Program-made: the position numbers and the translations under genes
In this document: positions 3,187-64,000 of the stretch, in pieces
Numbering within the stretch: the stretch's first letter is position 1
Layout: each line of letters opens with the position of its first letter
Notes under the pieces: generated by a model
Seen by the model: the letters and a program-made list of their open reading frames with translations, nothing else
What the model was told of the DNA's origin: nothing
Databases searched by the model: none
NCBI GenBank assembly: GCA_964591445.1
Contig: CAZQAW010000002.1
Location: forward strand, 3,394-67,393
Direction of reading: 5' to 3'
Length of the DNA: 64,000 bases
DNA from: an uncultured Candidatus Saccharibacteria bacterium
GTDB lineage: Bacteria > Patescibacteriota > Minisyncoccia > Phycocordibacterales > UBA9973

Positions 3187-4103
3187 TTTACCCTATTTTT
3201 ATCTTGTCCTGTTTTTAACAAATTAATCATTGAATCTACAGCCATATCACTACACAATTTAATTTCAGTTTCAGTATTAAATGCATTTGAGCCATTGAAA
3301 CAATACCAGTTACTCATCGGCAGTGAATCAAATTCTCCACTCCCCAATTTGTAATCTGAAGCAGCTCTTAGTCTTCCCGATTTAAGTTCATTATAAAGTG
3401 CAGTTTCATCAAGCGGACCACGATGCATGAAGCTTACAATGAGTGAGCCACCTTTGATAAGTTTTAATTCTTGTTCACTAATAAAATGTTCTCCCGCATC
3501 TTTTGAAACACAAAGGAATACGATATCGCTTTCAGAAAGCAGTCTGTTGAGTTCTTTATATTCCAAATTTGATTCTTCATGTCTTGTCCTACTAAAGTAA
3601 GAAATAGAAGCTGGGCGGAACGGCTCGATCATTTTTGCAATTTCTTTTCCAATTCTTCCGAACCCAACGATCCCAACGTGCTGACCTTCAATACCTTTGC
3701 TTGTCATGAATTTCTTCTCTCCTGCTCGCCCCAAATCAAAAATATTTCGATTCATTGCAAGTGCCATAGTTATAGCCCATTCTGCAACAGCATGTGTGGG
3801 CGCGTCCGGAGTATTTGCAATTGCAATTCCTTTGCTTGTTACATATTCGTGATTTGGTATAAAATCTTTATATCCAATTCCAGTAAAAACAATGGCTTTC
3901 AAAGCGTCCCCGGCATCAATAATCTTGTTACTGAGTTTTTCTATTCCGCCAAGAATATACCCATCTTTCCCTTTCACAGCCGCAACAAGTTCTTCTTCTG
4001 TTGCTTCGGGCTTATCAAGTCTTTCAATTTCAAACCCAGCATTACGAAGTTTTTCTTCGTGTTCTTTTTGTATAAACAATGAATCAGTTATAAGTATTTT
4101 CAT
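3183..4103 (-). CDS. D-isomer-specific 2-hydroxyacid dehydrogenase (phosphoglycerate/glycerate dehydrogenase family).
   Basis: NAD-binding GIVGFGRIGKEIAK motif and the overall domain order of the D-2-hydroxyacid dehydrogenase family. Confidence 0.8.
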   Translation of the reverse strand: MKILITDSLFIQKEHEEKLRNAGFEIERLDKPEATEEELVAAVKGKDGYILGGIEKLSNKIIDAGDALKAIVFTGIGYKDFIPNHEYVTSKGIAIANTPDAPTHAVAEWAITMALAMNRNIFDLGRAGEKKFMTSKGIEGQHVGIVGFGRIGKEIAKMIEPFRPASISYFSRTRHEESNLEYKELNRLLSESDIVFLCVSKDAGEHFISEQELKLIKGGSLIVSFMHRGPLDETALYNELKSGRLRAASDYKLGSGEFDSLPMSNWYCFNGSNAFNTETEIKLCSDMAVDSMINLLKTGQDKNRVN

Positions 4104-4107
4104 AAAA

Positions 4108-4722
4108 TTATTTTATCTTAGTCACCCTCACCACCCGACCAGTAGAATCATAAGTAGTCCACTCTCCTGTTTGTTTTCCTTTTTTGAAATATCCCGAGCG
4201 CATGATGGTGCCAACTTTTTTGCCTTTGGCTGGCTTGCGGAACCATTGCCAGTAGCCTTCCATTTTGCCGGCGACGGTTTTGCCTTTTGCCCAGACACTG
4301 CCGTCTTTGTGGTAAACGATGTGTGGTTTATTTGTCGAAGTTTGTTTTTGTTTTGAAGCTGTCTTCCCTTTCTGTTTTTCCAAAACTTCTTTCACTCGAA
4401 ACTTTGTAATTTTTGTTACAAGCGCGAGTGGAAGTTTTTCGGTCAGCGGAAATTGAATCGTGCCTTTTGATGTTTCGTATTTTGAAAGTTCTTTCGCAAA
4501 ATTGCTTACGCCAGACGGTGTCGGGAAAAATCCAATATGATTTTTGAATCCACCAAAGAACACCAAGTTCTCATGAAAGATAAACGCTGGCATGCCGTAC
4601 TTCATCGCCTCGGTCGCCTTCGGCGCAGCTTTCTTGATCGTCGCACGCATTTGTTTCAAAAATACTTGTACGTCTTTCGGATAAGAATTTATATATGCGT
4701 CTACAGTGGTAAAACTTTTCAT
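4108..4722 (-). CDS. DUF1801 (YdhG-like) domain protein with a C-terminal MORN/YwqK-like repeat.
   Basis: The N-terminus, DAYINSYPKDVQVFLKQMRATIKKAAP...GMPAF, is DUF1801-like. The C-terminus carries G..G.W repeats. Confidence 0.5.
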   Translation of the reverse strand: MKSFTTVDAYINSYPKDVQVFLKQMRATIKKAAPKATEAMKYGMPAFIFHENLVFFGGFKNHIGFFPTPSGVSNFAKELSKYETSKGTIQFPLTEKLPLALVTKITKFRVKEVLEKQKGKTASKQKQTSTNKPHIVYHKDGSVWAKGKTVAGKMEGYWQWFRKPAKGKKVGTIMRSGYFKKGKQTGEWTTYDSTGRVVRVTKIK

Positions 4723-8469: not shown

Positions 8470-8530
8470 CCTCACCCCCGGACTTCGTCTCGGCCCCTCT
8501 CCATTAAACTGGAGAGGGGCTGGGGTGAGG
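8470..8530. repeat. GC-rich nested-palindrome element, copy a: CCTCACCCC - CCGGACTTCGTCTCGG - CCCCTCTCC ATTAAAC TGGAGAGGGG - C - TGGGGTGAGG.
   Basis: Outer 9-bp inverted repeat CCTCACCCC/GGGGTGAGG encloses an inner palindrome CCCCTCTCC/GGAGAGGGG. The same modules recur at 16027-16065 and 43757-43870. Confidence 0.6.
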
Positions 8531-15826: not shown

Positions 15827-16294
15827 TTAAGAGATCTCAATCTCGCGAATAGATTCTTCTTTGTGAGACAAGTTTACCTTGATTGCATCAGACGGAATGA
15901 GTCCTGGAACCTGTTCTGGCCATTCGATCAGAATAAGATTTTTTGGATCAGACATGATTTCTTGCCAGCCGAGTTTTTCTAATTCTGTTTTGGAGCTTAA
16001 GCGGTATGCATCTATATGGATGAGTTTTGTGAATTGCCCCCTCTCCTGGCTAGGAGAGGGTTGGGGTGAGGTTGGTGGAAGATTATAGAACTTCATAATT
16101 ACAAACGTTGGTGAGACGAGATGTTCTTTTACGCCAAGCTCTCGCGCGATTGCTTGCGTGAACGTTGTCTTCCCTGCGCCAAGGTCTCCGGAAAGTGCAA
16201 CAACAGCCGCGCCGGTAAACCGGCGCGGCTTCACTGCTTCCAGCACTTCTTCCGCAACAGATTGTATTTCAGGTAGCTCAAAACTTCGTTTCAT
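15827..16294 (-). CDS. tsaE: tRNA threonylcarbamoyladenosine biosynthesis ATPase TsaE (YjeE), carrying an in-frame insertion of about 14 aa.
   Basis: P-loop GDLGAGKTTF, SPTF and HIDAYRL motifs. Between SPTF and HIDAYRL lies NLPPTSPQPSPSQERGQ, which is encoded by the palindromic repeat at 16027-16065. Confidence 0.8.
   Translation of the reverse strand: MKRSFELPEIQSVAEEVLEAVKPRRFTGAAVVALSGDLGAGKTTFTQAIARELGVKEHLVSPTFVIMKFYNLPPTSPQPSPSQERGQFTKLIHIDAYRLSSKTELEKLGWQEIMSDPKNLILIEWPEQVPGLIPSDAIKVNLSHKEESIREIEIS
16027..16065. repeat. GC-rich palindrome element, copy b: CCCCCTCTCCTGGCTAGGAGAGGG TTGGGGTGAGGTTGG, inserted in frame in tsaE.
   Basis: Same inner palindrome and GGGGTGAGG module as at 8470-8530 and 43757-43870. 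It translates as PTSPQPSPSQERGQ on the minus strand. Confidence 0.6.
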
Positions 16295-16314
16295 GCGGAG
16301 ACTTTAGCATAAAG

Positions 16315-16428
16315 AAAAGAAAGAAACTAGTTGGAAAAGCCTTGCGGAGGCTGTCGAGCCGAGCAGGCTACATTTTCAGCAGAAAATGATAGCTTGCTTT
16401 TCCAGCTAGTTTCTTTCTTTTCCGACAC
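16315..16428 (+). ncRNA. Candidate structured RNA or repeat element, copy 1. The conserved ~50-nt core CCTTGCGGAGGCTGTCGAGCCGAGCAGGCTACATTTTCAGCAGAAAAT sits inside a 24-bp flanking stem.
   Basis: The core is shared with 36935-36985 and, in reverse complement, with 63229-63284. The flanking arms AAGAAAGAAACTAGTTGGAAAAGC / GCTTTTCCAGCTAGTTTCTTTCTT pair with a single U-G wobble, which holds only in the plus-strand RNA. An intrinsic terminator follows at 16434-16457. Confidence 0.45.
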
Positions 16429-16433
16429 AAAAC

Positions 16434-16457
16434 AAAAGCCCCCGGTAGGGGGCTTTT
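16434..16457. terminator. Terminator hairpin AAAAGCCCCC-GGTA-GGGGGCTTTTGT.
   Basis: GC stem with flanking A and T runs. It lies 3' of the large minus-strand gene and 3' of the plus-oriented element. Confidence 0.6.
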
Positions 16458-16484
16458 GTACATGCGACTGCGCTTCTTTCACTT

Positions 16485-19292
16485 TTAGTGAGGCAAATGT
16501 GTTGGAGCTACCTGCTTCACAAATCGTGTCGGAGCGAATACTTTTCGTCCAAGCATAATAAGAAGAAGGACAATGAGAATGAATGCGAGCCAGCCGATCA
16601 AAGTATTCGGGAAGAGGCCATCTGCACCAAAGAGTGCAAGTGCTCCCAAGAATCCTACAGCTGATCCGGCGATCGTGTCGATAGAGTATGCAACAACGTC
16701 ATCTTGGATATTGCTTCCATAGACGTAAGCTGCTGTTCCTGAAGCAACAAGGGGGTCACCATTCTTTGCAGTTGTGCGAACGATACCATCGACGAAGAAA
16801 GATTCTTCTTCCTGAGGGTTGAGTGTTCCCACTTCTACCGTAACAGTATTGTCTTTCAAAGAATATTCACCGCGAGTGTTTCGAACGTCTGTAACATTTT
16901 CTGGAAGTTGGATGTGCACGACTACATCACGAAGCGTTGTTCGCTTTGCAATATTTTTGTAAGTAACAACGTAGTCGATCGCATCGCCTGGTCGGTATGT
17001 TTCATAACGACTTTCAATAGTAAGCGTCATGAGAGGAACATTACCTGAACCACCGCCACCTGTGTAGATGATGATCGGATCAGTATTTGTCTGAGCCTGA
17101 GTTCGGAATGACAAGATGTTTCCATAGACTGTTCCGCTTGTGCCATTTGAAGCAACTGCCCGGAAGTAGTACGTCGTATTTGGAGCAAGGTTATAGATCG
17201 GAGCAGAAAAAGACGTATTACCATATACAGTCTGAGCTGTAGTTGTTGCACCAAGAGAGTATGTGCTTCCCCACTGGAACCATACAGATGCTGTGGTAGA
17301 ACCACTGCAATTACCACCAAGAGGACATACGTAATTCATTCCAGAAACATATCCATTCAAGTTTGCACTTGTCTGGCCAACACCAGAAGCAACAAGAGTT
17401 GAAACTGAAAGTTGAGTTTGCTGAACGTAGTTGTATTCGTCGTTGTCTGTTGGGTACGCACAACCTGGATCGTTCATGTCTACATAACCATCGTAGTCGT
17501 TGTCGCGTCCGTCATTACATGCGTAAGTTTGTGGAGGATTGATGATCTGGTTGTATTCATCATTGTCTTTCGGAGATGAACAACCAGGGTCATTCATGTC
17601 GACATACCCATCGCCATCGTTATCAAGGTTGTCGCTACATGCGTATGTCTGTTGATACACAGTTCGCATATTTACAACAAGTGTTCGAGTTTGGATCGCT
17701 CCGCCCAAGATAGATGCAGAAAGTGTAAATGTTGTTGTTCCGTAAATCGGATGTGTGTCGATAGATCCGCTTGTTCCAACTGGTCCAAGAGATGAGATCG
17801 AAACATTTGTACAATCATTTGTTGTCGCCCATGTAAGAGTCGAAATACCGCCGCTGTTTACTGTTGAAGGTGAAGCGTTGAAGCTTGTAATCGCACAGTA
17901 TCCTTGTGAAGGCTGTTGTGTAACATACACTGTGACTGTTTTTGTCTGAGTTGGACCAGGTCCGTCTGCAGTCAAAGTAAATGGTGTTGTCGCGATCAAA
18001 TTTCCTGTTGAAGTTGAACCAGAAAGCATTTGTGAACCAAGATTTGTAATAGAAACTTGATCACAGTTTGTTGTTGTCCAGTACAAGTTTGCAGGGCTAC
18101 CATATGCCGTAGTTGAAGGTGCCGCAGAAAAACTATTGATAACACAGTTCTGAACTTGTGGCTGCTTCACTGTCACCGTAACAGTACGAGTGATAGTTGT
18201 ACCGTTGTTACAGTTTACTGTAAGTGTATACGTTGTTGTATTTGTCGGAGCAACTGTGACAGATCCAGAAAGTCCGGGATGGCTGTTGCCTGAAGTTGGA
18301 GAAATACTTACGCTTGAAGCGTTTGTTGTATTCCAAGAGAGTGTAGTCGTGTCACCTTTGTTGATGTTTGTAGATGATGCAGAAAATGTCGCAGTACATG
18401 CTGGAGGATTTCCTACATTGATACTTACAGTGTCATAAAGTGTGTTGCCGTTTTGACAGTGTACAGTAAGAGTATATGTTTGGTCGTGTTGAAGAGCGCC
18501 AGTCGGCTTTGTTCCAGATGGAACAGTTGCATTACCAAGGCCTGAAATGCTAGCGCTTGTAGCACCAGTTACTGACCATGAAAGTGTAGACGAACCGTTG
18601 TAAGAAACGTTTGTCGGACTTGCATTGAAGTAGTTGATGTTACATGCAGCTGGAGGAGGTGTGTTACCTACTAGAAACTGCGCGCGAACCGTACCTTGGT
18701 GACAGAAAGTCTGGCTTGTCGGGCAAGTAGAATCCGGACCGACTGAGCCCATATTGAATCCTCCGCCAAAAATAGCTGCTGCGTCATTGGCAGAAAGCGG
18801 AGTTCCGTACGTAGAATGTTCAGCGTACCATACCGCAGAACCAGGAACATACGTAAGCGTCTGAGCCTGAGAACCATTGATACTTACTGATGCAGAACCT
18901 GACTGAGGACAGTTTGTACAGTTTGAAGCTGTTACTGAACCAAAGAATGTCTGACTATGAACTGCGCCTGTCGACTGAGGACTCATTCGCACAGTTGTAT
19001 TTTGTGCAGCTACAGGACCAGTGTTGTGATAGTAGACACGAACGGCAATGGTATCTCCTGGATCAGCAGACACAGAACCATACCAAGCCGAAGTTGAATT
19101 CGGATTGTTGGTGACGTTCATCACCTTGACCGTAGCGAGGTCGCCAGGGTTTGTGTTGAAATACGTAGTACTCTGTGCTTGAGCCATGCCAAAAAAAGCA
19201 AAGCCGACGGCAAGCGTTCCCAAGAATACGTATTTCTTTATATTATTGAAATAATTCATATACTTTTTCTTACTGTTTATAATTCTGTACAC
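16485..19292 (-). CDS. Large cell-surface adhesin-like protein: signal peptide, DUF11/CARDB-like N-domain, four tandem ~85-aa Ig-like repeats, two dockerin/TSP3-like Ca-binding repeats, fibronectin-III-like domains and a C-terminal TM anchor.
   Basis: Repeats such as NxSPxxVxxGxxTTLxWxTTNAxxVSIS...TYTLTVxCxNG occur four times. Two CxDxxDNDxDGYVDMNDPGC motifs are present. The C-terminus contains GLFPNTLIGWLAFILIVLLLIMLGRK. Confidence 0.65.
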   Translation of the reverse strand: MYRIINSKKKYMNYFNNIKKYVFLGTLAVGFAFFGMAQAQSTTYFNTNPGDLATVKVMNVTNNPNSTSAWYGSVSADPGDTIAVRVYYHNTGPVAAQNTTVRMSPQSTGAVHSQTFFGSVTASNCTNCPQSGSASVSINGSQAQTLTYVPGSAVWYAEHSTYGTPLSANDAAAIFGGGFNMGSVGPDSTCPTSQTFCHQGTVRAQFLVGNTPPPAACNINYFNASPTNVSYNGSSTLSWSVTGATSASISGLGNATVPSGTKPTGALQHDQTYTLTVHCQNGNTLYDTVSINVGNPPACTATFSASSTNINKGDTTTLSWNTTNASSVSISPTSGNSHPGLSGSVTVAPTNTTTYTLTVNCNNGTTITRTVTVTVKQPQVQNCVINSFSAAPSTTAYGSPANLYWTTTNCDQVSITNLGSQMLSGSTSTGNLIATTPFTLTADGPGPTQTKTVTVYVTQQPSQGYCAITSFNASPSTVNSGGISTLTWATTNDCTNVSISSLGPVGTSGSIDTHPIYGTTTFTLSASILGGAIQTRTLVVNMRTVYQQTYACSDNLDNDGDGYVDMNDPGCSSPKDNDEYNQIINPPQTYACNDGRDNDYDGYVDMNDPGCAYPTDNDEYNYVQQTQLSVSTLVASGVGQTSANLNGYVSGMNYVCPLGGNCSGSTTASVWFQWGSTYSLGATTTAQTVYGNTSFSAPIYNLAPNTTYYFRAVASNGTSGTVYGNILSFRTQAQTNTDPIIIYTGGGGSGNVPLMTLTIESRYETYRPGDAIDYVVTYKNIAKRTTLRDVVVHIQLPENVTDVRNTRGEYSLKDNTVTVEVGTLNPQEEESFFVDGIVRTTAKNGDPLVASGTAAYVYGSNIQDDVVAYSIDTIAGSAVGFLGALALFGADGLFPNTLIGWLAFILIVLLLIMLGRKVFAPTRFVKQVAPTHLPH

Positions 19293-27062: not shown

Positions 27063-28451
27063 TTATATTGTGAATTTAACAAACCGCTTTTTGCCGATCT
27101 TGAGCGTAAGCTCTTGTTCTATTTTTATTTGCGGGTCGGAAATCTTTTCTTTTGTTTCCAGGTCTGTGACCGCGCCTTCGTCGAGCAAGCGACGGAATTC
27201 CCCTTTTGATTCTACAAGCCCATTTGCAAGTACGGCATCGATCAAAAGTGTTTCTTTTTCAACTTTGAATTCATCGATCTCATCCGGAATTTCTTTTTTC
27301 TGGAACTTGGTAATAAAGTCTTCTTCGGCTTCTTTGACATTTTTCTCACCGTGATATTCAGCAACAATCTGCCGTGCAAGTTCCATTTTGATATCTTTTG
27401 GATTCACTTTGCCGCCGGCAATTTCTTTTTTGATTTCTTCGATTCTGTCGAGCGTTGTGTATGTGCAAAGTTCAAAGTAGTTTGCAATGACAGAGTCTGG
27501 AATCGAAAGCACTTTGCCGTACATGTTGGCCGGTGTGTCAGTGATAGCAATGTAGTTATCCAAACTCTTACTCATCTTTTCTTTTCCATCGAGTCCAACA
27601 AGGAGTTCAAAACCAAGCACTGCTTGTGGCGGCTGATTGTTCATCTTCATCACATCGCGGCCGACAAGCATGTTGAACATTTGGTCTGTACCGCCAACTT
27701 CGAGGTCACACGAGCCATAGATAGACGCGAGAACCGTCGAGTCGATACCTTGAAGCACAGGGTACATCATTTCGTGCATATAGAGCTCTTGGTTGTTTTT
27801 GAGTCGAAGTTGAAACATGTCACGTTCGATCAAGCGAGAGTGGGTAATATGTCGAAGTGTTGCAAGAAATCGAGAGAGAGAAACTCCATGCACAATATTG
27901 TTCTTCAAATGTGTTTTCTGCATTCGAGTTTCGTCATAAATAACAGCTTTGCCTAAAAATGAATTTCCATCGACAGAAAGTTTGCTTTCAGTTTCTGGGA
28001 CGTTGATATTTACTTTCAACCCTTCTTGGACAGAGATGTCTGTCACCCCAGCAAACCAGTCTGAATTGCGGATCCAAGAAAATACTTTTTCATCGAGCAA
28101 AAGGATCTTCCCTACTTGGTCGAGGTACGTTTTCATATTTTCTTCAATTTGCTTTTGGTCGATTTCTGGGCGAACTTTGCTTTTGCCTGTCGGGTCGCCG
28201 ATCATGGTCGTGTAGTCTCCGATCAAGAAAATAACCTTACAGCCCAGATCCTGGAACCGGCGAAGCTTGCGGAAGACGACCGCGTGCCCGATATGAATAT
28301 CCGGCCGAGTCACATCCACGCCAAATTTAATCACCACTTTTTCTGGCTGTTCAATAAGCTTCTTACGAAAAGCGCCGTCCGGGTCGATAAACTCTCCTAC
28401 CCCACGCGCCAGCAATTCGTCTATAATTTGAACTCTTTCTTTCATAGGCAC
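27063..28451 (-). CDS. tyrS: Tyrosyl-tRNA synthetase with a C-terminal S4-like domain.
   Basis: HIGH motif (PDIHIGHAVV), KMSKS motif (KMSKSLDNYI), GGTDQ-like EVGGTDQMFN, and a C-terminal S4-like region. Confidence 0.85.
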   Translation of the reverse strand: MPMKERVQIIDELLARGVGEFIDPDGAFRKKLIEQPEKVVIKFGVDVTRPDIHIGHAVVFRKLRRFQDLGCKVIFLIGDYTTMIGDPTGKSKVRPEIDQKQIEENMKTYLDQVGKILLLDEKVFSWIRNSDWFAGVTDISVQEGLKVNINVPETESKLSVDGNSFLGKAVIYDETRMQKTHLKNNIVHGVSLSRFLATLRHITHSRLIERDMFQLRLKNNQELYMHEMMYPVLQGIDSTVLASIYGSCDLEVGGTDQMFNMLVGRDVMKMNNQPPQAVLGFELLVGLDGKEKMSKSLDNYIAITDTPANMYGKVLSIPDSVIANYFELCTYTTLDRIEEIKKEIAGGKVNPKDIKMELARQIVAEYHGEKNVKEAEEDFITKFQKKEIPDEIDEFKVEKETLLIDAVLANGLVESKGEFRRLLDEGAVTDLETKEKISDPQIKIEQELTLKIGKKRFVKFTI

Positions 28452-28538
28452 ACTTTAGCATAAATGACGCTTTTTGTCTTTTAGATAAAATAAAAACCCC
28501 TCCTTAATACGGAGAGGTCTTTTAAAATTTTAACCTTC

Positions 28539-29255
28539 TTATAGTTCAATAAGTTTTCGCGCAGTTTGTGCTATCTCATATTCTTTTACACAACCACCTG
28601 CTTTTTCCCAACCTTCATTCATGACTATCTTTCCAATTGGCAAAGAAGTTATAACCGGTTGATAGAAAAGCTCAAACTTACTATGAGTTTCACCTTCTTT
28701 TATAAAAGGAAGGTGACAATTTAAAAACGGGATTTGATTAAAAACGAGTCCGTTATTTTCTTCTGCAATATCAAGTATTTTCTTTCTTAAATCTTTAATA
28801 CCTTTCCTAATACCTTTAGGATGAGAATATAGTGGACTACTTATAAAAGCCAGACCTGAGTCACTCATATCCATCATCCACAAAATTGCTTTATAGCGTA
28901 GCTGGGTATAATTTTCACAAGAACGTAAAGTTCTTGATACTTTATATTCCATAATCCAGTTAGCCAAATAAAGAGTTATCCGCCAACTAATCCTTCGGCT
29001 TAAACCAAGATTGGTTTGTTTTTCATACCACTCAGATGAGTTATAAGGGATTTCATAATACCTTGAATAGTATGATTTTTGAGCAATTTTTTGAAATTCT
29101 TTATGAGAATTCAAAAAAATAATTCTCAATAATGGAATTAGCTTAGGTATACGACAAAGAAAAAAGTACTGTGATTCTACGCCAAGTAATATCATTGGAC
29201 TGCATACAAGAAACCCAAGAAGGGTTGTGTACATAATTTCTACTATTGTGTTCAT
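28539..29255 (-). CDS. Hypothetical protein in a distinctly AT-rich block. It has an N-terminal TM and no recognisable motif.
   Basis: Long ORF fitting the intergenic boundaries. Its composition is visibly more AT-rich than the neighbouring tyrS and PBP genes. Confidence 0.4.
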   Translation of the reverse strand: MNTIVEIMYTTLLGFLVCSPMILLGVESQYFFLCRIPKLIPLLRIIFLNSHKEFQKIAQKSYYSRYYEIPYNSSEWYEKQTNLGLSRRISWRITLYLANWIMEYKVSRTLRSCENYTQLRYKAILWMMDMSDSGLAFISSPLYSHPKGIRKGIKDLRKKILDIAEENNGLVFNQIPFLNCHLPFIKEGETHSKFELFYQPVITSLPIGKIVMNEGWEKAGGCVKEYEIAQTARKLIEL

Positions 29256-36440: not shown

Positions 36441-36905
36441 ATGAACAGAAGCGATATAGAAAAAAGCATACACGACCTTTTCCGGGCAACGAATCTCACT
36501 ATCGACGAAGTGGTGGTGAAAGATGATGAAGACACAGGCATGGTATGGTTTTCTATTCGTACGAGCGAGCCGGAACTTTTTATCGGCCGAAATGGTGAAA
36601 CACTTCAAGCTTGGAACCATATCGTTCGCAAAATGATCGAGAAACAACTTACCAGAGCGGAAACCTTTACTGAAATCTTGATCGATGTAAACGACTATCA
36701 AAAGAAAAAAGTAGACAGTTTGAAAACAATAGCTCATATGATGGCTGAACGCGCACGATTCTTCAAATCAAGCGTCGATGTCGAGCCGATGTCCCCTTAT
36801 GAAAGAAAGATTATTCACTCATATCTTGCAAATAAAAACGATGTGACAACAGAGTCTGCGGGCGAAGGACGAGACAGGCATGTGGTGATCAAATACGTTG
36901 GTTAG
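36441..36905 (+). CDS. jag: Jag/KhpB-like RNA-binding protein (KH plus R3H domains).
   Basis: The C-terminal ERKIIHSYLANKNDVTTESAGEGRDRHVVIK is an R3H motif. Typical gene order after yidC. Confidence 0.8.
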   Translation: MNRSDIEKSIHDLFRATNLTIDEVVVKDDEDTGMVWFSIRTSEPELFIGRNGETLQAWNHIVRKMIEKQLTRAETFTEILIDVNDYQKKKVDSLKTIAHMMAERARFFKSSVDVEPMSPYERKIIHSYLANKNDVTTESAGEGRDRHVVIKYVG

Positions 36906-37019
36906 CCGCACAAAAGAAAAAGCATTCCGGAGACCTTGCGCAGGCTGTCGAGCCGAGCAGAGCAAATTTTCAGCAGAAAATTATGTCGTGTCTCCGGAAT
37001 GCTTTTTCTTTTGTGCGGC
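36905..37019 (+). ncRNA. Candidate structured RNA or repeat element, copy 2. The conserved core sits inside a perfect 30-bp stem that exactly fills the spacer between convergent jag and the gene at 37023.
   Basis: Core ACCTTGCGCAGGCTGTCGAGCCGAGCAGAGCAAATTTTCAGCAGAAAAT. Arms GCCGCACAAAAGAAAAAGCATTCCGGAGAC / GTCTCCGGAATGCTTTTTCTTTTGTGCGGC. Confidence 0.45.
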
Positions 37020-37022
37020 TTG

Positions 37023-41234: not shown

Positions 41235-43067
41235 TTACTTTACACCCTTCTCTGCCATTTCGAGTTCGTCTTTAGATTTCTTGATTGCAAGCACTTGCGA
41301 CGGGTCAGACGTGATGATCTGGTCTTCGGTATAAGACGAGATGATTTTGATAGCGACGTGTTTGAGTCCGGCAAAGAAAATACCTTCTCCGACGTTTGAT
41401 TCAAGAAGCAAATATTTCTCTTCGTCTGTGAGGTTAAAGGTTTTTTGGAGTAAGTCGATCGATGACGGAGACTGTTTAAGTAGAAGTTGGAGCGAAGAGT
41501 TAGTAACAATCGGCACGCCGTACGGGCTTTTCATAAAGTCCCCTACGTCTTGAGTGATCGTACAAAGTCCAAGGTAGTATTTTCGGCCACGCTTTGCGAT
41601 CGAGTACAAGAACGACGCTGTATCGTCGGATTTCATCATCCACCACGCTTCGTCGACAACGAGCAAGCGCTTTTTCAAATTCTTGCGCACTGCGTTCCAA
41701 ATATAGTGCGTGACGATGTACATGGCAACCGGTTTCAATTCGTCTTCCATGTCGCGCACGGAAAAAACGACGAACTTTTTGTTGATGTCGACGTTTGAAG
41801 GCTGGTTTAAAAATGTAGACCATGAACCGCGAGTGAACTTTGCCAAGCGCTGAATGAGAGACTCACTTCCCTCCATGCCAGCTAAGACCATTTCAAAGTC
41901 AGTCAAAAGCGGCGGCTCGATATTTGAGAAATCTGAATCAGCGGTGATGTCTTTGATCGCGTATGTTTCGGTAATCGCGCGGTCGACGATGGAATCTTCT
42001 TCCGGAGTAAGGCCGCCAAGCATGATACGGAAAAGCCCGACCAAGTTGATCACGTTTGAACGAAGCACGTCCGCCGGAGTTTCATCTTCGCGAGGAATTG
42101 GAAGATCAAACGGGTTGATGTGGTGTTCTGAAGAAAGTGCAATGTTGAAGTATCGCCCGCCGACGGCTTCGGCCAAATATTCGTATTCTTTTTCCGGGTC
42201 GATCACGATAACTTCTGTATCGAACATGAGCGTACGAAGGATTTCGAGTTTTGTCGCGTATGATTTACCGGAACCAGATTTGGCAAAGATGATCGAGTTG
42301 TAGTTTTCCAAAGAAAATCGATCGAAAATGACGAGCGAAGAGTTGTGGCGATTTACGCCATAGAGTATTCCCTTGTCAGACGTAAGGTCAAACGAAACGA
42401 ATGGAAAAAGCGAAGAAAGCGGCTCAGAATTGAGCTTTTGGTGGACGTTCAAGAGGTCACTTCCGAGAGGAATGACTGAATCAAACCCTTCTTCTTGCTG
42501 GAAAAGTGCCGGTTTCAAATAGACAAGCTTTGATTCGAGGATAGACTTGATTTCGTTCTCAATTTTAAAAAGCTCATTTTCGTTGTTGCCGTATACTGTT
42601 ATATAAAGCCCGACGTCAAAAATCTTTTCTTGCGCTTGTTGCAAATTGTCTCGCAATCCTTCCAAGTCTTGATACGCGGTGTCGAGCATCGGGTCGCGAA
42701 CAAGGCCTTTGCTTTCGCGGATGTTGATCTGGCTTTGTACTTCGGCAACTTTCTTTTGGAACTCGCGGAGGATTTTTGCAGTTTCGATCGGATGGATGAA
42801 AATGGAAACGTCAAAGATCTTGTCGAGGTTGATGATCGGAGAGAACCAGTTGTCGGAAAGATAGCGTGGATACGAAATGACGAAGAATGTGCGAGCCATT
42901 TTGTCTCCCAAGTTAAGTGCCTTTGGTTCTATTTTGAGCGCAGACGGCGCAATGATATCGCGGAATTCAAGCGTTGCCGCTTCATAAATTTCCGTCGGCA
43001 AAACCGGAAGCACCTGCTTCTTCCCCGCTCCGTCATCTTTCTTTTTTAGAAAATCAAAAAGTGCCAT
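41235..43067 (-). CDS. virB4: VirB4/TrbE/TraC-family type IV secretion ATPase, C-terminal ATPase portion of 610 aa.
   Basis: Walker A IIFAKSGSGKSYATK, Walker B LLVVDEAWWMM, and family-typical blocks (GLCTITQDVGDF). Confidence 0.8.
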   Translation of the reverse strand: MALFDFLKKKDDGAGKKQVLPVLPTEIYEAATLEFRDIIAPSALKIEPKALNLGDKMARTFFVISYPRYLSDNWFSPIINLDKIFDVSIFIHPIETAKILREFQKKVAEVQSQINIRESKGLVRDPMLDTAYQDLEGLRDNLQQAQEKIFDVGLYITVYGNNENELFKIENEIKSILESKLVYLKPALFQQEEGFDSVIPLGSDLLNVHQKLNSEPLSSLFPFVSFDLTSDKGILYGVNRHNSSLVIFDRFSLENYNSIIFAKSGSGKSYATKLEILRTLMFDTEVIVIDPEKEYEYLAEAVGGRYFNIALSSEHHINPFDLPIPREDETPADVLRSNVINLVGLFRIMLGGLTPEEDSIVDRAITETYAIKDITADSDFSNIEPPLLTDFEMVLAGMEGSESLIQRLAKFTRGSWSTFLNQPSNVDINKKFVVFSVRDMEDELKPVAMYIVTHYIWNAVRKNLKKRLLVVDEAWWMMKSDDTASFLYSIAKRGRKYYLGLCTITQDVGDFMKSPYGVPIVTNSSLQLLLKQSPSSIDLLQKTFNLTDEEKYLLLESNVGEGIFFAGLKHVAIKIISSYTEDQIITSDPSQVLAIKKSKDELEMAEKGVK

Positions 43068-43068
43068 A

Positions 43069-43722
43069 TTATTTTTCGAGTTTGATAGACTGTGTTACTT
43101 CGCCAGGGTTAAAAATTTTATAAAAGAGTTCCACGATTTCTTCGGTGCCAAGCGCGACAGTGCGGATGCCGATGCGAGAAAGTCCTTGTTGGATGACGCC
43201 GATGCGCTGGTCGAGCTGGCTGCGTTTTTCTTCAAAGTTGATTTGGTCTGCGGTGCGTTTATCCGTCGGATCTTTTTGTTGGCCCGGAAGCAAATTTTTC
43301 AAACCGGCAATCGTCCCTTCACTTCCCAAAGCCGGCTGCGTGTATGGCACGGTGATGAAAAAGCTTTTCGTCATGATGTTGACGCTTTCGGTAAAAGAGC
43401 GGATGAATTCAATATATTCTCGAGTTTGGATTTTAAGGAGTGGTTCGAGCTGTTCTTTCATGCGGTTCTCGAGCAAGCCAAGATATGGGCGGATGTCGAG
43501 CCGGCGGGATTGCACAGAGATTTGTGTAGAAAAATCAAGCGAATTTAAAAAGTTCTGGAATTGCAAAAGCACTGCTTGCTGTTCGTCGACAGATTTGAGC
43601 GAAAGGTTGATGGACGACGCCAAAAGTACAGCGCGAATGCCGCCGTCTTTTAAAATAATGATACCGTCCCTGACTTCTTTGATCGGGACAAAATCTTGCG
43701 TTGCTTGAGCTCTGACTGCCAT
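43069..43722 (-). CDS. virB4: VirB4-family N-terminal domain encoded as a separate 217-aa ORF. Either a split gene or a frameshift at an A5/T5 run.
   Basis: TQDFVPIKEVRDGIIILKDGGIRAVLLASSINLSLKSVDEQQAVL is the characteristic N-terminus of Gram-positive/conjugative VirB4 proteins (PIKDIRDGII..KDG.Y..ILE...INF.L.S.EEQ). Its stop TAA is separated by 1 nt from the ATG of the ATPase ORF, in a different frame. Combined length 827 aa. Confidence 0.55.
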   Translation of the reverse strand: MAVRAQATQDFVPIKEVRDGIIILKDGGIRAVLLASSINLSLKSVDEQQAVLLQFQNFLNSLDFSTQISVQSRRLDIRPYLGLLENRMKEQLEPLLKIQTREYIEFIRSFTESVNIMTKSFFITVPYTQPALGSEGTIAGLKNLLPGQQKDPTDKRTADQINFEEKRSQLDQRIGVIQQGLSRIGIRTVALGTEEIVELFYKIFNPGEVTQSIKLEK

Positions 43723-43756
43723 TAGGTTTAGTATAGCACTTACTCTTTTATTTTAT

Positions 43757-43870
43757 GGTGTGTATTCCTCCTCTCCTAGCCAGGAGAGGACTACGGCTTG
43801 CCGAGTGGTGAGGTTGTTTGTTCCTGAACTCAACCTCACCCCGAACCTTCGGTCGACCCTCTCCTAGCCA
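43757..43870. repeat. GC-rich nested-palindrome element, copy c (composite): CCTCTCCTAGCCAGGAGAGG ... GTGGTGAGG ... CCTCACCCC GAACCTTCGGTCGA CCCTCTCCTAGCCAGGAGAGGG.
   Basis: Contains the same outer (CCTCACCCC/GGTGAGG), linker (CCGnACnTTCGnTC) and inner palindrome modules as copy a. Lies in the intergenic region between the virB4 N-domain gene and the prgI-like gene. Confidence 0.6.
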
Positions 43871-43879
43871 GGAGAGGGT

Positions 43880-44290
43880 TTATTTCTTTTTCACGTCCAA
43901 CACGTCGAGCGACCATGCCATGTCTTTGAGCTTGCTTTCGGAGAGTTTTGGTACGTATGAAGATGTTGGAATCGAAGATGCAGCTTCTTTGTTTATCTCA
44001 GACTGATCTCTCGGTATTTTCTTCCAGACGTAGAGTTTGCTCTTGCCGATGTATGCGATGTATGACTGCAAGATGTCAATAAAAGGCTTGTCGTTGACTT
44101 TGTAAAATGTGAGCGCAAGTGAAAGTGCGGCAATAGGAAGCATGATAAGCACAGCAAAAAAGAACGGCAAGATTTTGTAGATGACGAAACATATTCCCGC
44201 ACCGCCGGCCAAATACAAGAATTGTCGGAACGAGAACGGCCCAAAGATCTTGTCTTCAACGTCGATGAATTGTGGAACTTTGAATTGCAT
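43880..44290 (-). CDS. PrgI/VirB3-like small membrane protein of type IV secretion systems.
   Basis: MQFKVPQFIDVEDKIFGPFSFRQFLYLAGGAGICFVIY plus a second TM helix: the PrgI-family N-terminal pattern (x.FGP.t.RQF.yl). Confidence 0.5.
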   Translation of the reverse strand: MQFKVPQFIDVEDKIFGPFSFRQFLYLAGGAGICFVIYKILPFFFAVLIMLPIAALSLALTFYKVNDKPFIDILQSYIAYIGKSKLYVWKKIPRDQSEINKEAASSIPTSSYVPKLSESKLKDMAWSLDVLDVKKK

Positions 44291-63194: not shown

Positions 63195-63198
63195 AATA

Positions 63199-63313
63199 CC
63201 AAAACAATAAAACAAACATTCTGAAAGCAAGCTATAATTTTCTGCTGAAAATTTAGCCTGCTCGGCTCGACAGCCTCCGCAAGGCTTTCATAATATTTGT
63301 TTTATTGTTTTGG
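63199..63313 (-). ncRNA. Candidate structured RNA or repeat element, copy 3, in minus orientation. The core sits inside a ~30-bp stem whose outer arm overlaps the last four codons of the comM-like gene.
   Basis: Reverse complement of 63229-63284: AAGCCTTGCGGAGGCTGTCGAGCCGAGCAGGCTAAATTTTCAGCAGAAAATTATAGC. Arms CCAAAACAATAAAACAAACATTCTGAAAGC / GCTTTCATAATATTTGTTTTATTGTTTTGG have two mismatches, one of which is a G-U wobble only on the minus-strand RNA. Confidence 0.45.
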
Positions 63314-64000
63314 TCGATATTGCAACGCTTCCAAAACATGCTGTGTGGTTACATTTTCGCTTTCTGCCAAGTCTGCAATGGTGCGCGCGAGTTTGATGAC
63401 TCGGTGGTATGCTCGCGCAGACAGCCCGAGTTTTTCGGCTGTCGTATTTAAAAGTTTTTTCGTTTCTTCGGAGAGCGGAACATAACTTGCGAGGTCTCGT
63501 GTATTCATCTCTGTATTTGTGGTGATGCTACGCGGATGATTTTTAAATCTTTTTCTCTGTATTGCTCTTGCGCGTTCGACGCGTTTTTTTATTTCAGCAC
63601 TTCCTTCGCCTTCTCGTGTCGTAGTGCTCAACTTTTCATAATCCACTTCGCCGACGTGCGTCCAAATATCGACGCGGTCCATGATCGGCCCGGAAATTTT
63701 TCTTTGGTATCGCGCAATATCATTTTGTCGACAGACGCATTCTTTGTGAAGCGCGCCGCGGTTGCCGCATGGACACGGGTTCATCGCTGCGACCAAAATA
63801 AATCTTGATGGAAAAACGACCGAACCTTTGGCGCGAGAAACAGTGACCACTTTGTCTTCCAAAGGTTGTCGCAAACTTTCAATCACACGTTTTTCAAATT
63901 CTGGAAATTCATCGAGAAACAAAACTCCATGATGTGCGAGCGTGACTTCGCCAGGTTTTGGAAAGGTGCCACCGCCAATCATCGAAACGTACGATGCGGT
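63302..64000 (-). CDS. YifB/ComM-family Mg-chelatase-like AAA+ ATPase. Partial: the N-terminus lies beyond the window end.
   Basis: HHGVLFLDEFPEF (Walker B/sensor), RFILVAAMNPCPCG, and a C-terminal Mg_chelatase_C-like region (ARAYHRVIKLARTIADLAE). Confidence 0.8.
   Translation of the reverse strand, partial: TASYVSMIGGGTFPKPGEVTLAHHGVLFLDEFPEFEKRVIESLRQPLEDKVVTVSRAKGSVVFPSRFILVAAMNPCPCGNRGALHKECVCRQNDIARYQRKISGPIMDRVDIWTHVGEVDYEKLSTTTREGEGSAEIKKRVERARAIQRKRFKNHPRSITTNTEMNTRDLASYVPLSEETKKLLNTTAEKLGLSARAYHRVIKLARTIADLAESENVTTQHVLEALQYRPKQ

Follow-up and report, generated by a model that had tools for sequence, protein, structure and literature searches.

A BoxC/PIT/TMECO intrastrand triplex motif in frame within tsaE, and a candidate partnership with DUF559 nucleases

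The window, by which we mean the whole 64-kb stretch of DNA analysed here, contains an intact gene for TsaE with a GC-rich repeat unit embedded in its reading frame, at a surface loop of the protein. The protein is identified as TsaE by Pfam PF02367 (E=4e-32) and TIGR00150, and it meets the criteria for that protein, namely a P-loop (GxxGxGKT), SPT(F/Y) and HxDxYR motifs and the TsaE fold, its AF2 model matching the TsaE structures 1HTW and 6N9A with TM-scores of 0.73-0.77. The gene and the parts of the repeat within it are as follows.

15827-16294, minus strand: tsaE coding sequence, 155 aa, intact, with the motifs GDLGAGKTT, SPTF, HIDAYRL and EWPE all present
16034-16078, minus strand: codons for PPTSPQPSPSQERGQ, TsaE residues 73-87 (codon positions counted from the sequence)
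16037-16075, plus strand: full repeat unit, 39 nt, 13 codons (P74-G86 of TsaE), GC-rich and in frame
16039-16072, plus strand: strict three-strand motif, CCCTCTCCT-ggct-AGGAGAGGG-ttg-GGGTGAGGT, 9 triads, 0 mismatches
16039-16046, plus strand: pyrimidine stem CCCTCTCC, Watson-Crick partner of 16053-16060
16053-16060, plus strand: purine stem GGAGAGGG, which makes a 9-bp hairpin with 16039-16046
16063-16071, plus strand: mirror-repeat third strand GGGGTGAGG, which read backwards matches the purine stem over 8-9 triads with no mismatch

The original prediction, that a palindromic repeat sits in frame inside tsaE as an insertion of 39-42 nt, is borne out by the 39-nt, 13-codon unit; the position given for it (16027-16065) was about 10 nt away from the unit, the strict motif and the codons of the quoted peptide (16037-16075, 16039-16072 and 16034-16078, respectively). 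The plus strand reads CCCTCTCC-TGGCTA-GGAGAGGG-TT-GGGGTGAGG-TTGG across the unit and the gene sense reads CCAACCTCACCCC-AA-CCCTCTCC-TAGCCA-GGAGAGGGGG, the G-rich, triplex-capable strand being antisense to tsaE. On folding, the 9-bp hairpin has an energy of -17.3 kcal/mol in the mRNA (z=-2.9), with z=-2.7 for DNA. Translation of the unit yields a loop of about 13 residues rich in Pro and Ser, and the window protein reads PPTSPQPSPSQERGQFT between SPTFVIMKFYNL and KLIHIDAYRL.

HMMER alignments of the window TsaE with solved TsaE structures are either broken or carry a 14-residue gap at the insert. The usual spacer had been put at about 8 residues and proves to be larger: 11-12 residues separate the end of SPTF(T/V)(L/I) from the His in the solved Thermotoga maritima and Haemophilus influenzae proteins. 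By the same measure the commonest form among the 120 nearest homologues has 15 residues and the window protein 26; a second count puts the modal spacing at 16 residues, found in 48 of the 120, and that of the window protein at 27. Homologues of TsaE number 6388 at E<=1e-10. Across the clade the distance from SPTF to HxDxYR ranges over 14-38 residues, so that loop length is variable. In the AF2 model the insert forms the turn of the β-hairpin that joins the two motifs (strands 67-71 and 90-95), with a pLDDT of about 68 compared with 86 overall, in keeping with the loop location that had been expected. The motifs flanking the insert are those that touch TsaD and ATP in the TsaBDE structure (PMC6009658). 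Strand topology, in the absence of a measured distance, leads us to infer that the hairpin tip bearing the insert would lie at the end of the sheet far from both ATP and TsaD.

The tsaE segment is an in-frame copy of the dispersed GC-rich repeat known as BoxC, PIT or TMECO, an 'intrastrand triplex motif' (TM) (Bergler 1992; Hoyne & Maher 2000; Holder et al. 2015, PMC4666352). In a TM, a pyrimidine stem is followed, after a loop, by its complementary purine stem and, after a second loop, by the purine stem again in mirror copy (PMC4666352). The window motif, CCCTCTCC-loop-GGAGAGGG-TT-GGGGTGAGG, has this architecture together with the stem sequences, and the tsaE copy fits the structural definition (loop 1 of 3-6 nt, a short loop 2 and stems of at least 8 nt). 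Its 8+8+9 core of stems and third strand is identical to E. coli TMECO nos. 1, 4, 12 and 20 (PMC4666352 Table 1). It also satisfies the consensus CCCTCNCCC-N3-6-GGGNGAGGG-N3-GGGNGAGGG, which allows one mismatched triad, and departs from it only at the loop-proximal triad, a permitted class II T-A.T and not C-G.G; the triads made by the third strand with the purine stem are G.G, A.A and T.A. Intergenic location has been described for the E. coli copies but does not belong to the structural definition, and the tsaE copy, lying within a gene, does not share it. TMECO has been reported as always intergenic in MG1655 (PMC4666352). E. coli has 23 TMECO loci; Salmonella lacks TMs (Holder et al. 2015). 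That the repeat belongs to an already described family, and that GGGGTGAGG represents the mirror-repeat third strand of a TM, had both gone unnoticed in the original prediction.

Further copies, and one degenerate hairpin, lie elsewhere in the window.

8470-8530, no strand assigned: intergenic copy A, in the rpsT/ruvA spacer, a palindromic double motif built on one common hairpin, each of the DNA strands carrying a third strand
28497-28518, plus strand: degenerate hairpin CCCCTCC-ttaatac-GGAGAGG, at the position that holds motif-DUF559-motif in relative L149
43770-43878, no strand assigned: intergenic copy C, two inverted motifs with the hairpins outermost

The 64 kb hold five TMs at three loci, one in tsaE and four in two spacers, where about none would be expected. 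The hairpin pattern occurs three times against 0.00 expected, and GGGGTGAGG four times against 0.10 expected, each time adjoining such a hairpin. Sites A and C are both intergenic and consist of inverted or palindromic pairs, which meets the TM criterion of a dispersed multi-copy repeat often found in inverted pairs; the same module at these sites also substantiates the claim that the extra TsaE residues are encoded by a module found between genes. Copy A is laid out as CCTCACCCC-15 nt-CCCCTCTCC-loop-GGAGAGGGG-CT-GGGGTGAGG. At site C the third-strand segments are only 20 nt apart (43814-43833), the layout is the one found around DUF559 genes, and the bases just ahead of CAACCTCACCCC are similar to the 3' end of DUF559 in L149; this inner end, CAACCTCACCCC, is common to the tsaE unit, site C, L149 and the insert in a distant tsaE (P0021). 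The degenerate hairpin is possibly a relic of a motif-DUF559-motif arrangement, on weak evidence.

Two other identities for the repeat were rejected. No Rfam family covers any TM site (the whole window at the gathering threshold, and 16000-16500 at E<=1), the only matches being to spurious miRNA-like hairpins, and an RNA-family identity was dropped. A three-way junction, with CCTCACCCC pairing with GGGGTGAGG as at site A, fails for solo copies and variants, which have no Watson-Crick partner for the third segment; in these the third segment mirrors the purine stem and is not its complement.

Variant motifs in relatives change their stems while keeping the mirror rule (AGGGGAG/GAGGGGT, AAGGGGGAG/GAGGGGGTG and AGGGAAGG/GGAAGGGT). 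The mirror rule was judged on asymmetric variant stems and against shuffles, since GGAGAGG reads the same in mirror image and neighbouring hairpins give direct copies. Such covariation of pyrimidine stem, purine stem and mirror strand offers only indirect support for a triplex geometry. Folding of the G-rich strand into a stable intramolecular purine-motif triplex (CD/NMR) has been demonstrated in vitro for E. coli oligonucleotides with the same stems (PMC4666352). DMS footprinting in E. coli did not detect the triplex in vivo (PMC4666352), and the triplex fold at the TMs described here is therefore a potential and not a demonstrated state. Long second loops can themselves fold as a mini hairpin, 17 of 35 beating 95% of shuffles.

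A scan with CCTCACCCC-N-CCTCTCC-N-GGAGAGG finds at least 120 loci, and the matches listed include Proteobacteria, Bacteroidota, Chloroflexota, Planctomycetota, Cyanobacteria, Acidobacteriota, Actinomycetota and Verrucomicrobiota. The family is represented in most bacterial phyla. Other TM copies lie in frame inside the domains of RsmH, TsaD, UvrD, Dus and MurD, on low-GC metagenome contigs, and inside a GT1 glycosyltransferase domain, and the unit is read in at least three frames over both orientations (PSPSQERG, PLLARRG and LSWLGEG). A literature search found no paper on in-frame TM or BoxC copies or on such inserts in proteins of the candidate phyla radiation, which does not in itself prove novelty.

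A relative (L001, with TsaE P0004) has a plain 6-residue loop, ENQNWQ, and no repeat copy in its 2950-nt contig; its polA is 93.7% identical to that of the window in DNA, and its TsaE is 84% identical outside gaps. Because this relative combines a short native loop with absence of the repeat, the long spacer is, on this comparison, an insertion and not a lineage-wide loop, and the refutation test proposed with the original prediction did not overturn it. The net gain is 11 codons (33 nt) over the empty loop of this relative, the closest with such a loop, and about 14-15 residues over the solved structures; the predicted addition was about 14. The native loop has diverged from the empty allele, which leaves no target-site duplication or clean edge of the insertion readable at tsaE; alignment with orthologues supports the insertion and leaves its exact boundaries unresolved.

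The unit entered tsaE after the split from the empty-loop lineage. The same TM unit is present in P0021, a TsaE only 53% identical to that of the window, and the loop was colonised separately in distant TsaE lineages. Among other relatives the loop carries the 39-nt unit, this unit with 33 nt more, or a variant unit that runs the opposite way; in one the 33-nt indel falls in loop 2 (L002), and two carry the reversed variant TM (L003 and L177). The tsaE loop has been colonised repeatedly, by several repeat types. The original prediction had not picked up this recurrence.

tsaE is a local hot spot of divergence. Two relatives that are 99.16% identical over 13.2 kb (L173 and L003) have 100 of their 129 differences within tsaE, with a dS of 0.377 there against 0.002 in polA, and two contigs with 99.9% identical polA have tsaE genes that are only 86.6% identical. 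The L003 allele comes from one assembly only, and chimerism of that metagenome contig cannot be ruled out altogether; the L173 combination turned up three times. The in-frame insert is present in independent data (an NCBI MAG, JGI 3300045398 and two Logan runs), and its longer form comes from JGI 3300010356. Site C varies as well: L130 has a single hairpin there, a 97-99% identical relative has an 88-nt indel between the two hairpins, and L149 has a 98% identical copy with different flanks. TM-bearing sites turn over fast, and the inference that the element is or was mobile is upheld by the presence, absence and orientation polymorphism of the loop in near-identical genomes, by the separate gain in the 53%-identical TsaE, and by the indel and relocated copy of site C.

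Every pair of tsaE alleles compared (the window with four relatives) has a dN/dS of 0.09-0.25, and tsaE is still under purifying selection. We infer that the protein tolerates the insert, as had been thought probable, and that the insert contributes nothing to TsaE, because purifying selection is kept and because there are both insert-free alleles and alleles with different inserts in the opposite orientation. Tolerance is further inferred from the position of the hairpin tip away from ATP and TsaD.

The window has no DUF559 gene in its 64 kb, and L149, which is about 96% identical to it, has a TM-DUF559-TM arrangement with the same TM subtype. Targeted tblastn found DUF559 at seven TM-selected loci, five of them with the gene between inverted motifs (other TM pairs were uninspected), and all DUF559 matches in TM-selected loci adjoin TMs or sit between them. 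In two samples chosen for DUF559 alone, all 50 TMs lie no further than about 200 nt from an end of the gene, compared with 0-0.25 TMs per set in the shuffled control; in the second sample strict TMs occur at only 6 of 16 loci. In many phyla TMs cluster tightly at the two ends of DUF559 genes. In E. coli, ycjD is a DUF559 gene with a degenerate TM at its end, and TMECO no. 9 lies 168 nt away.

DUF559 matches PDB 3HRL and the I-Bth0305I homing-endonuclease domain 3R3P (E=5e-4 for 3R3P), and DUF559, Vsr and the I-Bth0305I-type (EDxHD) homing endonuclease are placed in one PD-(D/E)XK clade (PMC3424549). The core E-x-D-G-x-x-H is kept, with E64, D66 and G67 invariant in the DUF559 alignment. Some DUF559 genes stand alone and others are joined in frame to host proteins; in-frame reading of whole units is also possible within essential genes (metG in L022). 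The hairpins around the genes point either outward or inward, two end arrangements that do not fit a single simple transposon model. No paper tying DUF559 to BoxC/TM repeats was found in a literature search, which again leaves novelty unproven. By analogy, the association suggests a repeat/nuclease pairing like that of REP and RAYT, with no DUF559 activity shown.

Taken as a whole, we consider it likely that tsaE carries a TM insert that is tolerated and recurrent, with DUF559 as the candidate propagator. Under the proposed mechanism a DUF559 nuclease of PD-(D/E)XK fold, from the clade of Vsr and homing endonucleases and flanked by inverted TMs, would spread the family; gene-less inverted pairs such as site C would be deletion derivatives, and solo TMs such as the tsaE copy would be single ends or collapsed pairs. 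Recurrence in the tsaE loop would then reflect selection, insertions elsewhere in tsaE being lethal. Propagation of the family by a DUF559 nuclease with inverted flanking TMs, for which no activity is shown, is a tentative proposal that we would not yet favour over its negation. The broader reading, in which BoxC/TMECO repeats are the terminal repeats of a bacteria-wide selfish DUF559-encoding element and gene-less pairs and solo copies its non-autonomous derivatives, is put forward with the same reserve, a little short of evenly balanced. DUF559 could alternatively be a passenger that lands between TMs and not a mobiliser.

The insert itself might be read in other ways. Its metagenomic source, and a related contig that ends within tsaE (L176), raise the prospect that an assembly or binning artefact mis-spliced a GC-rich segment into the gene, which recovery of the same in-frame insert from independent data sets, with reading frame and codon-level conservation intact, renders negligible. 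An ordinary lineage-specific expansion of the loop by small indels and substitutions, with a coincidental likeness to the repeat, could draw on the 14-38-residue range in the clade, which implies that change is tolerated; it is highly improbable, being already contradicted by a stretch of 34-39 nt whose stems match both the intergenic copies and the E. coli consensus (0 expected), by the short loop in a roughly 93%-identical relative, and by the same DNA unit in the 53%-identical P0021. We also think it unlikely that the insert is kept as useful to tsaE, whether as a peptide (a new interaction surface) or, in the mRNA, as a hairpin that pauses translation or stabilises the transcript. The stable mRNA hairpin (-17.3 kcal/mol, z=-2.9) is kept in both insert types and both orientations, and the insert has persisted in at least three lineages, but the alternative inserts encode unrelated peptides (PPTSPQPSPSQERG and PLLKGEWPSTAEG), the insert-free allele is under the same purifying selection, and the same unit recurs in unrelated proteins and spacers. 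PIT elements, moreover, have neither promoter nor terminator activity in E. coli (PMC4666352).

How the family spreads is less settled. Spread without a dedicated enzyme, by stalling of the replication fork at the folded strand and subsequent template switching, or by gene conversion from other copies, with DUF559 as mere cargo or a selfish gene homing into TM pairs, is a serious if on balance improbable alternative. No transposase or integrase lies near TMECO, and the motif has been tied to local instability (Holder et al., PMC4666352); allelic replacement and indels are observed at TM sites, the ends around DUF559 are arranged in two opposite ways, and strict TMs are found at only about half of moderate-GC DUF559 loci. 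Structure alone, however, does not need the stem sequences that are conserved from E. coli to this low-GC lineage, nor does this alternative sit well with the tight clustering of TMs at both DUF559 gene ends in many phyla or with the gene-less pair at site C, which keeps bases like the DUF559 3' end. Mobilisation as a REP/REPIN or IS200/IS605-type element by a Y1 enzyme (RAYT/TnpA), or as a classical MITE by a DDE transposase, is very unlikely: the TM is a short GC-rich palindrome, often in REPIN-like inverted pairs, but neither GTAG nor CGTC tags the hairpin end at any of the three sites in the window, no terminal inverted repeats accompanied by a readable target-site duplication are seen, and the TM has a conserved mirror third strand, which is absent from REPs. 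The genes found between inverted copies are DUF559 and not Y1 transposases, in a window not fully screened for transposases.

In the 30 years since they became known, BoxC/TMECO repeats have been seen as orphan motifs of intergenic DNA without a mobility gene. A motif described as strictly intergenic can sit in frame in conserved, normally essential genes. The variant motifs provide a natural covariation test, in which the pyrimidine stem, purine stem and mirror strand change together, and they give the first argument from sequence that what is propagated is a three-strand geometry and more than a hairpin, the in vivo triplex being unproven. The DUF559 association supplies a testable candidate enzyme for the spread of BoxC/TMECO and a possible function for this widespread domain, including E. 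coli YcjD. TM units also explain many odd loops and 'hypothetical' peptides (PSPSQERG, PLLARRG, LSWLGEG) in metagenome proteins and mark places of assembly breaks and allele divergence.

Compared with BoxC/PIT/TMECO in E. coli, the window motif shares the three-part architecture (CCCTCTCC...GGAGAGGG..GGGGTGAGG beside CCCTCTCCC...GGGAGAGGG..GGGGTGAGGG), the dispersal across bacteria in several copies and often inverted pairs, and the unusual variation of carrying sites among close relatives. TMECO, by contrast, is reported to be always intergenic in MG1655 and to have no linked mobility gene, whereas the window copy is in frame in a conserved gene; in the window lineage a mini hairpin of 13-36 nt often takes the place of the 3-nt second loop, stems have diversified (GGGGGAG, GGGAAGG) under the same mirror rule, and the motifs flank DUF559 genes. 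RPEs are palindromic repeats found in frame in unrelated housekeeping genes, at positions that fit protein fold and function, and also in spacers (Ogata et al. 2000, reviewed in PMC10969869). The TM meets their criterion of an in-frame palindromic repeat in unrelated protein-coding genes and, without a sequence comparison to the RPE consensus, not that of size, family and conserved peptide: RPEs are about 100-150 bp, confined to Rickettsia and encode a conserved peptide segment, while the TM unit, which measures 34-39 nt and is spread across bacteria, has a mirror third strand and is translated in several frames and in either orientation.

Like I-Bth0305I and Vsr, DUF559 belongs to the PD-(D/E)XK clade, its profile matching 3R3P and its core being E-x-D-G-x-x-H; I-Bth0305I, however, lies in a group I intron of a phage and is directed at a specific gene, whereas DUF559 genes are bounded by TMs and not by intron or intein sequences. 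As for MITEs, site C has an inverted TM pair, and at tsaE, with its diverged native loop, no duplication is readable. REPs are described as 20-40-bp palindromes tagged with GTAG or CGTC (PMC3733652). The TM differs in having no such tag at either hairpin end (three window sites) and in its third, mirror-symmetric segment; the motif-adjacent gene is DUF559, and not a RAYT gene, at all seven TM-selected loci where DUF559 was found (window and source genome not fully screened), with a Vsr-like PD-(D/E)XK fold in place of HUH Y1 and no demonstrated activity. The REP/REPIN-RAYT system is nevertheless alike in placing a single-copy nuclease gene between inverted short palindromes, with gene-less singles and inverted pairs elsewhere. 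If the proposed partnership is true, it would be a second repeat/nuclease pairing of the REP-RAYT kind, on a different fold, and in low-GC lineages, probably of the candidate phyla radiation, its derivatives would regularly give rise to new protein loops and hyper-divergent alleles.

In the window's TsaE, PPTSPQPSPSQERGQFT separates the conserved SPTFVIMKFYNL and KLIHIDAYRL blocks. The HMMER alignment with T. maritima 6N9A splits at this point (query 70/91 versus chain 71/77), and that with H. influenzae 1HTW opens a 14-residue gap at the insert. On the plus strand the inserted DNA reads CCCTCTCC-TGGCTA-GGAGAGGG-TT-GGGGTGAGG-TTGG. Against an expectation of 0.00, the window holds three instances of the hairpin pattern; GGGGTGAGG is present four times where 0.10 would be expected, with such a hairpin adjoining every one. 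Because these counts lie far above expectation and the other sites are intergenic, the palindrome and module that the original prediction saw in tsaE are real; the interval first proposed, 16027-16065, sits about 10 nt too far left.

15827-16294, minus strand: tsaE, 155-aa TsaE (Pfam PF02367, E=4e-32; TIGR00150)
16037-16075: repeat unit in tsaE, 13 codons, P74-G86
16034-16078: the peptide as originally quoted
8470-8530: site A, intergenic, in the rpsT/ruvA spacer
43770-43878: site C, intergenic

A full-text search on motif words linked the unit to the intrastrand triplex motif TMECO, formerly BoxC and PIT (Holder et al. 2015, PMC4666352), whose consensus is CCCTCNCCC-N3-6-GGGNGAGGG-N3-GGGNGAGGG. 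Entries from E. coli, for instance CCCTCTCCC-TGTG-GGAGAGGG-TC-GGGGTGAGGGC, have both stems and the third strand in common with the tsaE unit. Reversed, GGGGTGAGG pairs with GGAGAGGG as G.G, A.A and T.A triads, and a purpose-built motif finder scores the tsaE copy at nine triads without mismatch. Scanning one genome per species for CCTCACCCC-N2-32-CCTCTCC-N4-8-GGAGAGG returned at least 120 matching loci; the matches listed span most bacterial phyla, with a second loop usually of 3-7 nt. Canonical motifs cannot separate a mirror from a direct repeat, because GGAGAGG equals its own mirror image. This is settled by asymmetric stems in two related loci, L003 and L173 (AGGGGAG...GAGGGGT, AAGGGGGAG...GAGGGGGTG, AAGGGGAGG...GGAGGGGTG and AGGGAAGG...GGAAGGGT): in each, the pyrimidine stem complements the purine stem and the third segment mirrors the purine stem. 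As far as sequence can tell, the third segment is a mirror repeat, not a direct one. A three-way junction is excluded because the third segment lacks a Watson-Crick partner. Where the second loop is long, it usually contains a mini hairpin (in 17 of 35 spacers folding is better than for 95% of the shuffled versions), which keeps the third segment beside the duplex. These patterns are indirect evidence that the three-strand geometry is what is propagated; they do not establish triplex formation in cells. TMECO forms a stable purine-motif triplex in vitro but gave no footprint in vivo, and promoter or terminator activity was not found (PMC4666352).

The original prediction of an insertion would have failed had repeat-free relatives shared the extended spacer, a condition that the data do not fulfil. 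Five close relatives came out of a search through 5.8 billion proteins, and we aligned their DNA. One of them, L001, has a six-residue loop (ENQNWQ) and no repeat on its contig, and its polA is ~93-94% identical to that of the window. The window's unit is also found in L173, L174 and L175, and in L002, where an additional 33 nt between CCTCACCCCAA and the hairpin form a small hairpin of their own (GTCCATC...GATGGAC). At this position L003 and L177 have an insert that is palindromic but different, CTCCCCC-ttttaaa-GGGGGAG-t-[GGCCGagcaCGGCC]-GAGGGGG, translated PLLKGEWPSTAEG. Of the 120 nearest homologues, 48 have 16 residues between SPTF and HxDxYR; the window has 27 and L002 has 38. A more distant TsaE (P0021, 53% identical) contains CCAACCTCACCCC-GA-CCCTCTCC-TGAAA-GGAGAGGG at the equivalent loop, with orientation and frame both as in the window; this type of insert is missing from its nearest neighbours in the homologue set. 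Given the short loop of L001 and a P0021 unit that its neighbours lack, the TsaE loop represents an insertion that arose more than once, not a lineage-wide feature. The tsaE insert is an in-frame copy of the motif at the hairpin tip, gained after the split from the empty-loop lineage, with separate gains elsewhere.

Further homologues carry other inserts in this loop: P0116 (L126 1018-1488) has a clear palindrome, CATTCCTGC-gaag-GCAGGAATC, translated VIPAKAGIQ; P0073 has an unrelated insert with only weak folding; and P0086 has an unrelated insert seen at the protein level, its DNA not having been examined. The tip thus accepts several insert types, including at least two palindromic repeats. 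Between tsaE and polA, which are 19 nt apart in the window, L002 (617-1390) has two small ORFs of 133 and 118 aa, neither with a Pfam match. A related Logan contig (L176 1-110) terminates in tsaE just downstream of the loop, which may be an assembly break caused by a variable or repeated segment. A second repeat family has three copies in the window (16314-16422, 36904-37020 and 63198-63314), each with a ~55-nt conserved core (CCTTGCGGAGGCTGTCGAGCCGAGCAGGCTAAATTTTCAGCAGAAAATTATAGCTTG) within 27-31-nt arms that are 94-100% complementary per copy and differ in sequence between copies, a covariation-like pattern; it has no Rfam match. Its first copy sits immediately upstream of tsaE, and in L002 the element likewise occurs upstream of this gene.

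In an AlphaFold2 model of the window's TsaE (mean pLDDT 86.4; matches to 1HTW and 6N9A chain E with TM 0.77 and 0.73) the insert, at pLDDT ~68, sits between strands 67-71 and 90-95, in a loop region as anticipated. The TsaBDE structure (PMC6009658) shows the SPT(F/Y)T peptide reaching into the active site of TsaD, with Tyr82 of the HxDxYR block stacked against the same protein. Since both ends of the hairpin lie at this interface, the insert-bearing tip should point away from it, an inference from topology for which no distance was measured. Outside the loop dN/dS is 0.09-0.25 for all ten pairs of five tsaE alleles, indicating functional genes throughout, whether or not an insert is present; tsaE remains constrained despite the insert, in keeping with the tolerance originally thought probable. 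The peptides of the two insert types are unrelated and an empty allele exists, which argues against a role for the inserted peptide. The tsaE mRNA gains a hairpin of -17.3 kcal/mol (z=-2.9), for which a role is not excluded, although nothing points to one.

Other genes host the unit as well. A metagenome scan for the hairpin with the exact tsaE loop (CCTCTCCTAGCCAGGAGAGG) found 45 loci, for the most part at 31-50% GC, with Pfam-confirmed in-frame copies within six proteins, on low-GC metagenome contigs:

L146: TsaD
L142: RsmH/MraW
L171: UvrD
L129: Dus
L132 and L148: MurD
L156: GT1 glycosyltransferase

Pfam also places in-frame copies at the ends of a Wzy-type protein and a GT2 protein. The unit can be read as ...PSPSQERG..., ...PLLARRG... 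or, from the G-rich strand, ...LSWLGEG...; of the remaining frames two are closed by the loop TAG and one by a TGA within GGGGTGAGG. One of the hosts, TsaD, is the partner of TsaE.

Sites carrying the motif turn over quickly. L173 and L003 are 99.16% identical over 13.2 kb, yet 100 of their 129 differences fall between tsaE codon 27 and the stop codon; tsaE (L173 2772-3242, L003 10001-10468) is 86.6% identical where polA is 99.9%, and dS is 0.377 in tsaE against 0.002 in polA. This concentration and the dS contrast indicate that one genome acquired a divergent tsaE allele by recombination, the acquired allele bearing a different motif in opposite orientation. As a caveat, the L173 combination was assembled three times, that of L003 only once. 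A second cluster of 23 differences lies at the 3′ end of the upstream 825-aa gene (L173 ~2250-2500), and the motif-bearing spacer between the two clusters is identical. In all lineages tsaE identity is 82-92% where polA identity is 93-99.9%. At site C the window has two motifs and L130 (97-99% identical) a single hairpin, the result of an 88-nt indel whose borders are the 20-nt hairpin repeat, and the site A orthologue in L003 and L173 holds other motif subtypes. The suggestion that the element is or was mobile is supported by alleles that differ in insert presence, type and orientation, and by repeated insertion into the loop. Site C itself lies between a PrgI-family gene (43880-44290) and an unannotated 217-aa ORF (43069-43722), beyond which a 610-aa ORF (41235-43067) looks VirB4/TraC-like by eye, without a Pfam scan; the region 41235-44290 is a possible locus for a conjugation or type IV secretion-like apparatus.

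Motifs also bound genes for the DUF559 nuclease domain. L149 matches window 28031-28487 at ~96% identity; there it has such a gene enclosed by an inverted pair of motifs, of the subtype found in tsaE and at site C. The gene's final codons (LNLTPNLRSTLS) are motif sequence, and its stop is the hairpin-loop TAG. A degenerate hairpin, CCCCTCC-ttaatac-GGAGAGG, lies at window 28497-28518, exactly where L149 has this unit; the neighbouring window gene 28539-29255 (238 aa, no Pfam match) replaces it.

L149 594-1037: DUF559 gene, 125 aa, PF04480 E=3e-32
L149, L004, L018, L022, L054, L077, L166; L178; L179-L222: loci with DUF559 flanked by inverted motifs, many phyla, whichever way loci were sampled

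We ran tblastn with the L149 protein against 178 loci (1.34 Mb), most chosen solely for containing motifs. DUF559 was found in seven (Acinetobacter, Beijerinckiaceae, a betaproteobacterium, Hymenobacter, Gemmataceae and two low-GC metagenome contigs), each time adjoining or between motifs. A complete motif-DUF559-motif unit sits in frame within metG of the betaproteobacterium (L022, MAG CAVPKE010000004.1, ~2112-2648), between the anticodon-binding (Anticodon_3) and tRNA_bind domains of methionyl-tRNA synthetase, and in Hymenobacter sp. BT190 (L077, ~3763-4288) motif and DUF559 are fused in frame to the C terminus of a PurQ-like amidotransferase. E. coli MG1655 ycjD, annotated 'DUF559 domain-containing protein' (L178, NC_000913.3 1351204-1351760), has its stop codon within a degenerate motif; TMECO no. 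9 lies 168 nt beyond, and the intervening DNA includes a duplicated ycjD 3′ fragment. Its neighbour is fabI, in whose sequence BoxC was reportedly first described. In the reverse test, a strict motif finder applied to viral-contig loci selected solely for DUF559 found motifs in 19 of 23 loci in one set (40 motifs) and in 6 of 16 in the other (10 motifs), against 0-0.25 per shuffled set. All 50 lie within ~200 nt of the DUF559 gene ends, a zone of ~20% of the sequence, and none elsewhere. The flanking stems vary by lineage, but the complement rule, the mirror rule and the mini hairpin are all preserved. Hairpins are usually outermost; the gene-less site C has this layout too, and its inner bases retain a resemblance to the DUF559 3′ end. 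The opposite arrangement also occurs.

How the motif spreads is inferred. By analogy with RAYT and REP, the DUF559 nuclease may recognize the folded motif end and promote its copying, both activities being hypothetical; we hold this tentatively, at a little under even confidence. The tsaE solo copy would then be a single end or a collapsed pair, as in site C versus L130. The main alternative is enzyme-free spread, with structure at stalled forks, or else gene conversion, as the driving force and DUF559 merely homing into motif pairs; we regard this as possible but doubtful. The DUF559 profile matches PDB entries 3HRL (E=6e-38) and 3R3P (E=5e-4), the latter the catalytic domain of homing endonuclease I-Bth0305I, and DUF559 is classed with Vsr in one PD-(D/E)XK clade (PMC3424549). 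No transposase or integrase was reported close to TMECO (PMC4666352). We infer that the tsaE insert is selfish DNA, either neutral or of slight cost, and that it appears in this loop because insertion elsewhere in tsaE would be lethal.

The repeat and in-frame palindromes as a phenomenon were already known separately. The literature searchable here yielded no account of the two together, of mini-hairpin or variant-stem forms, of the tsaE allelic hot spot, or of the DUF559 association; nor was this association found in the DUF559 literature searched, mostly titles and abstracts. The unit has neither a REP tag nor a Y1 partner, although the window was not screened ORF by ORF. It behaves like the Rickettsia palindromic elements but is not one of them, because its length, sequence and taxonomic range differ (no comparison with their consensus sequences was made). 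TMECO is 'always intergenic' in MG1655, is frequently present as inverted pairs and shows raised local variability (PMC4666352), which the turnover seen here fits. By architecture and sequence the unit belongs to BoxC/PIT/TMECO, and intergenic location is the sole described property that it fails.
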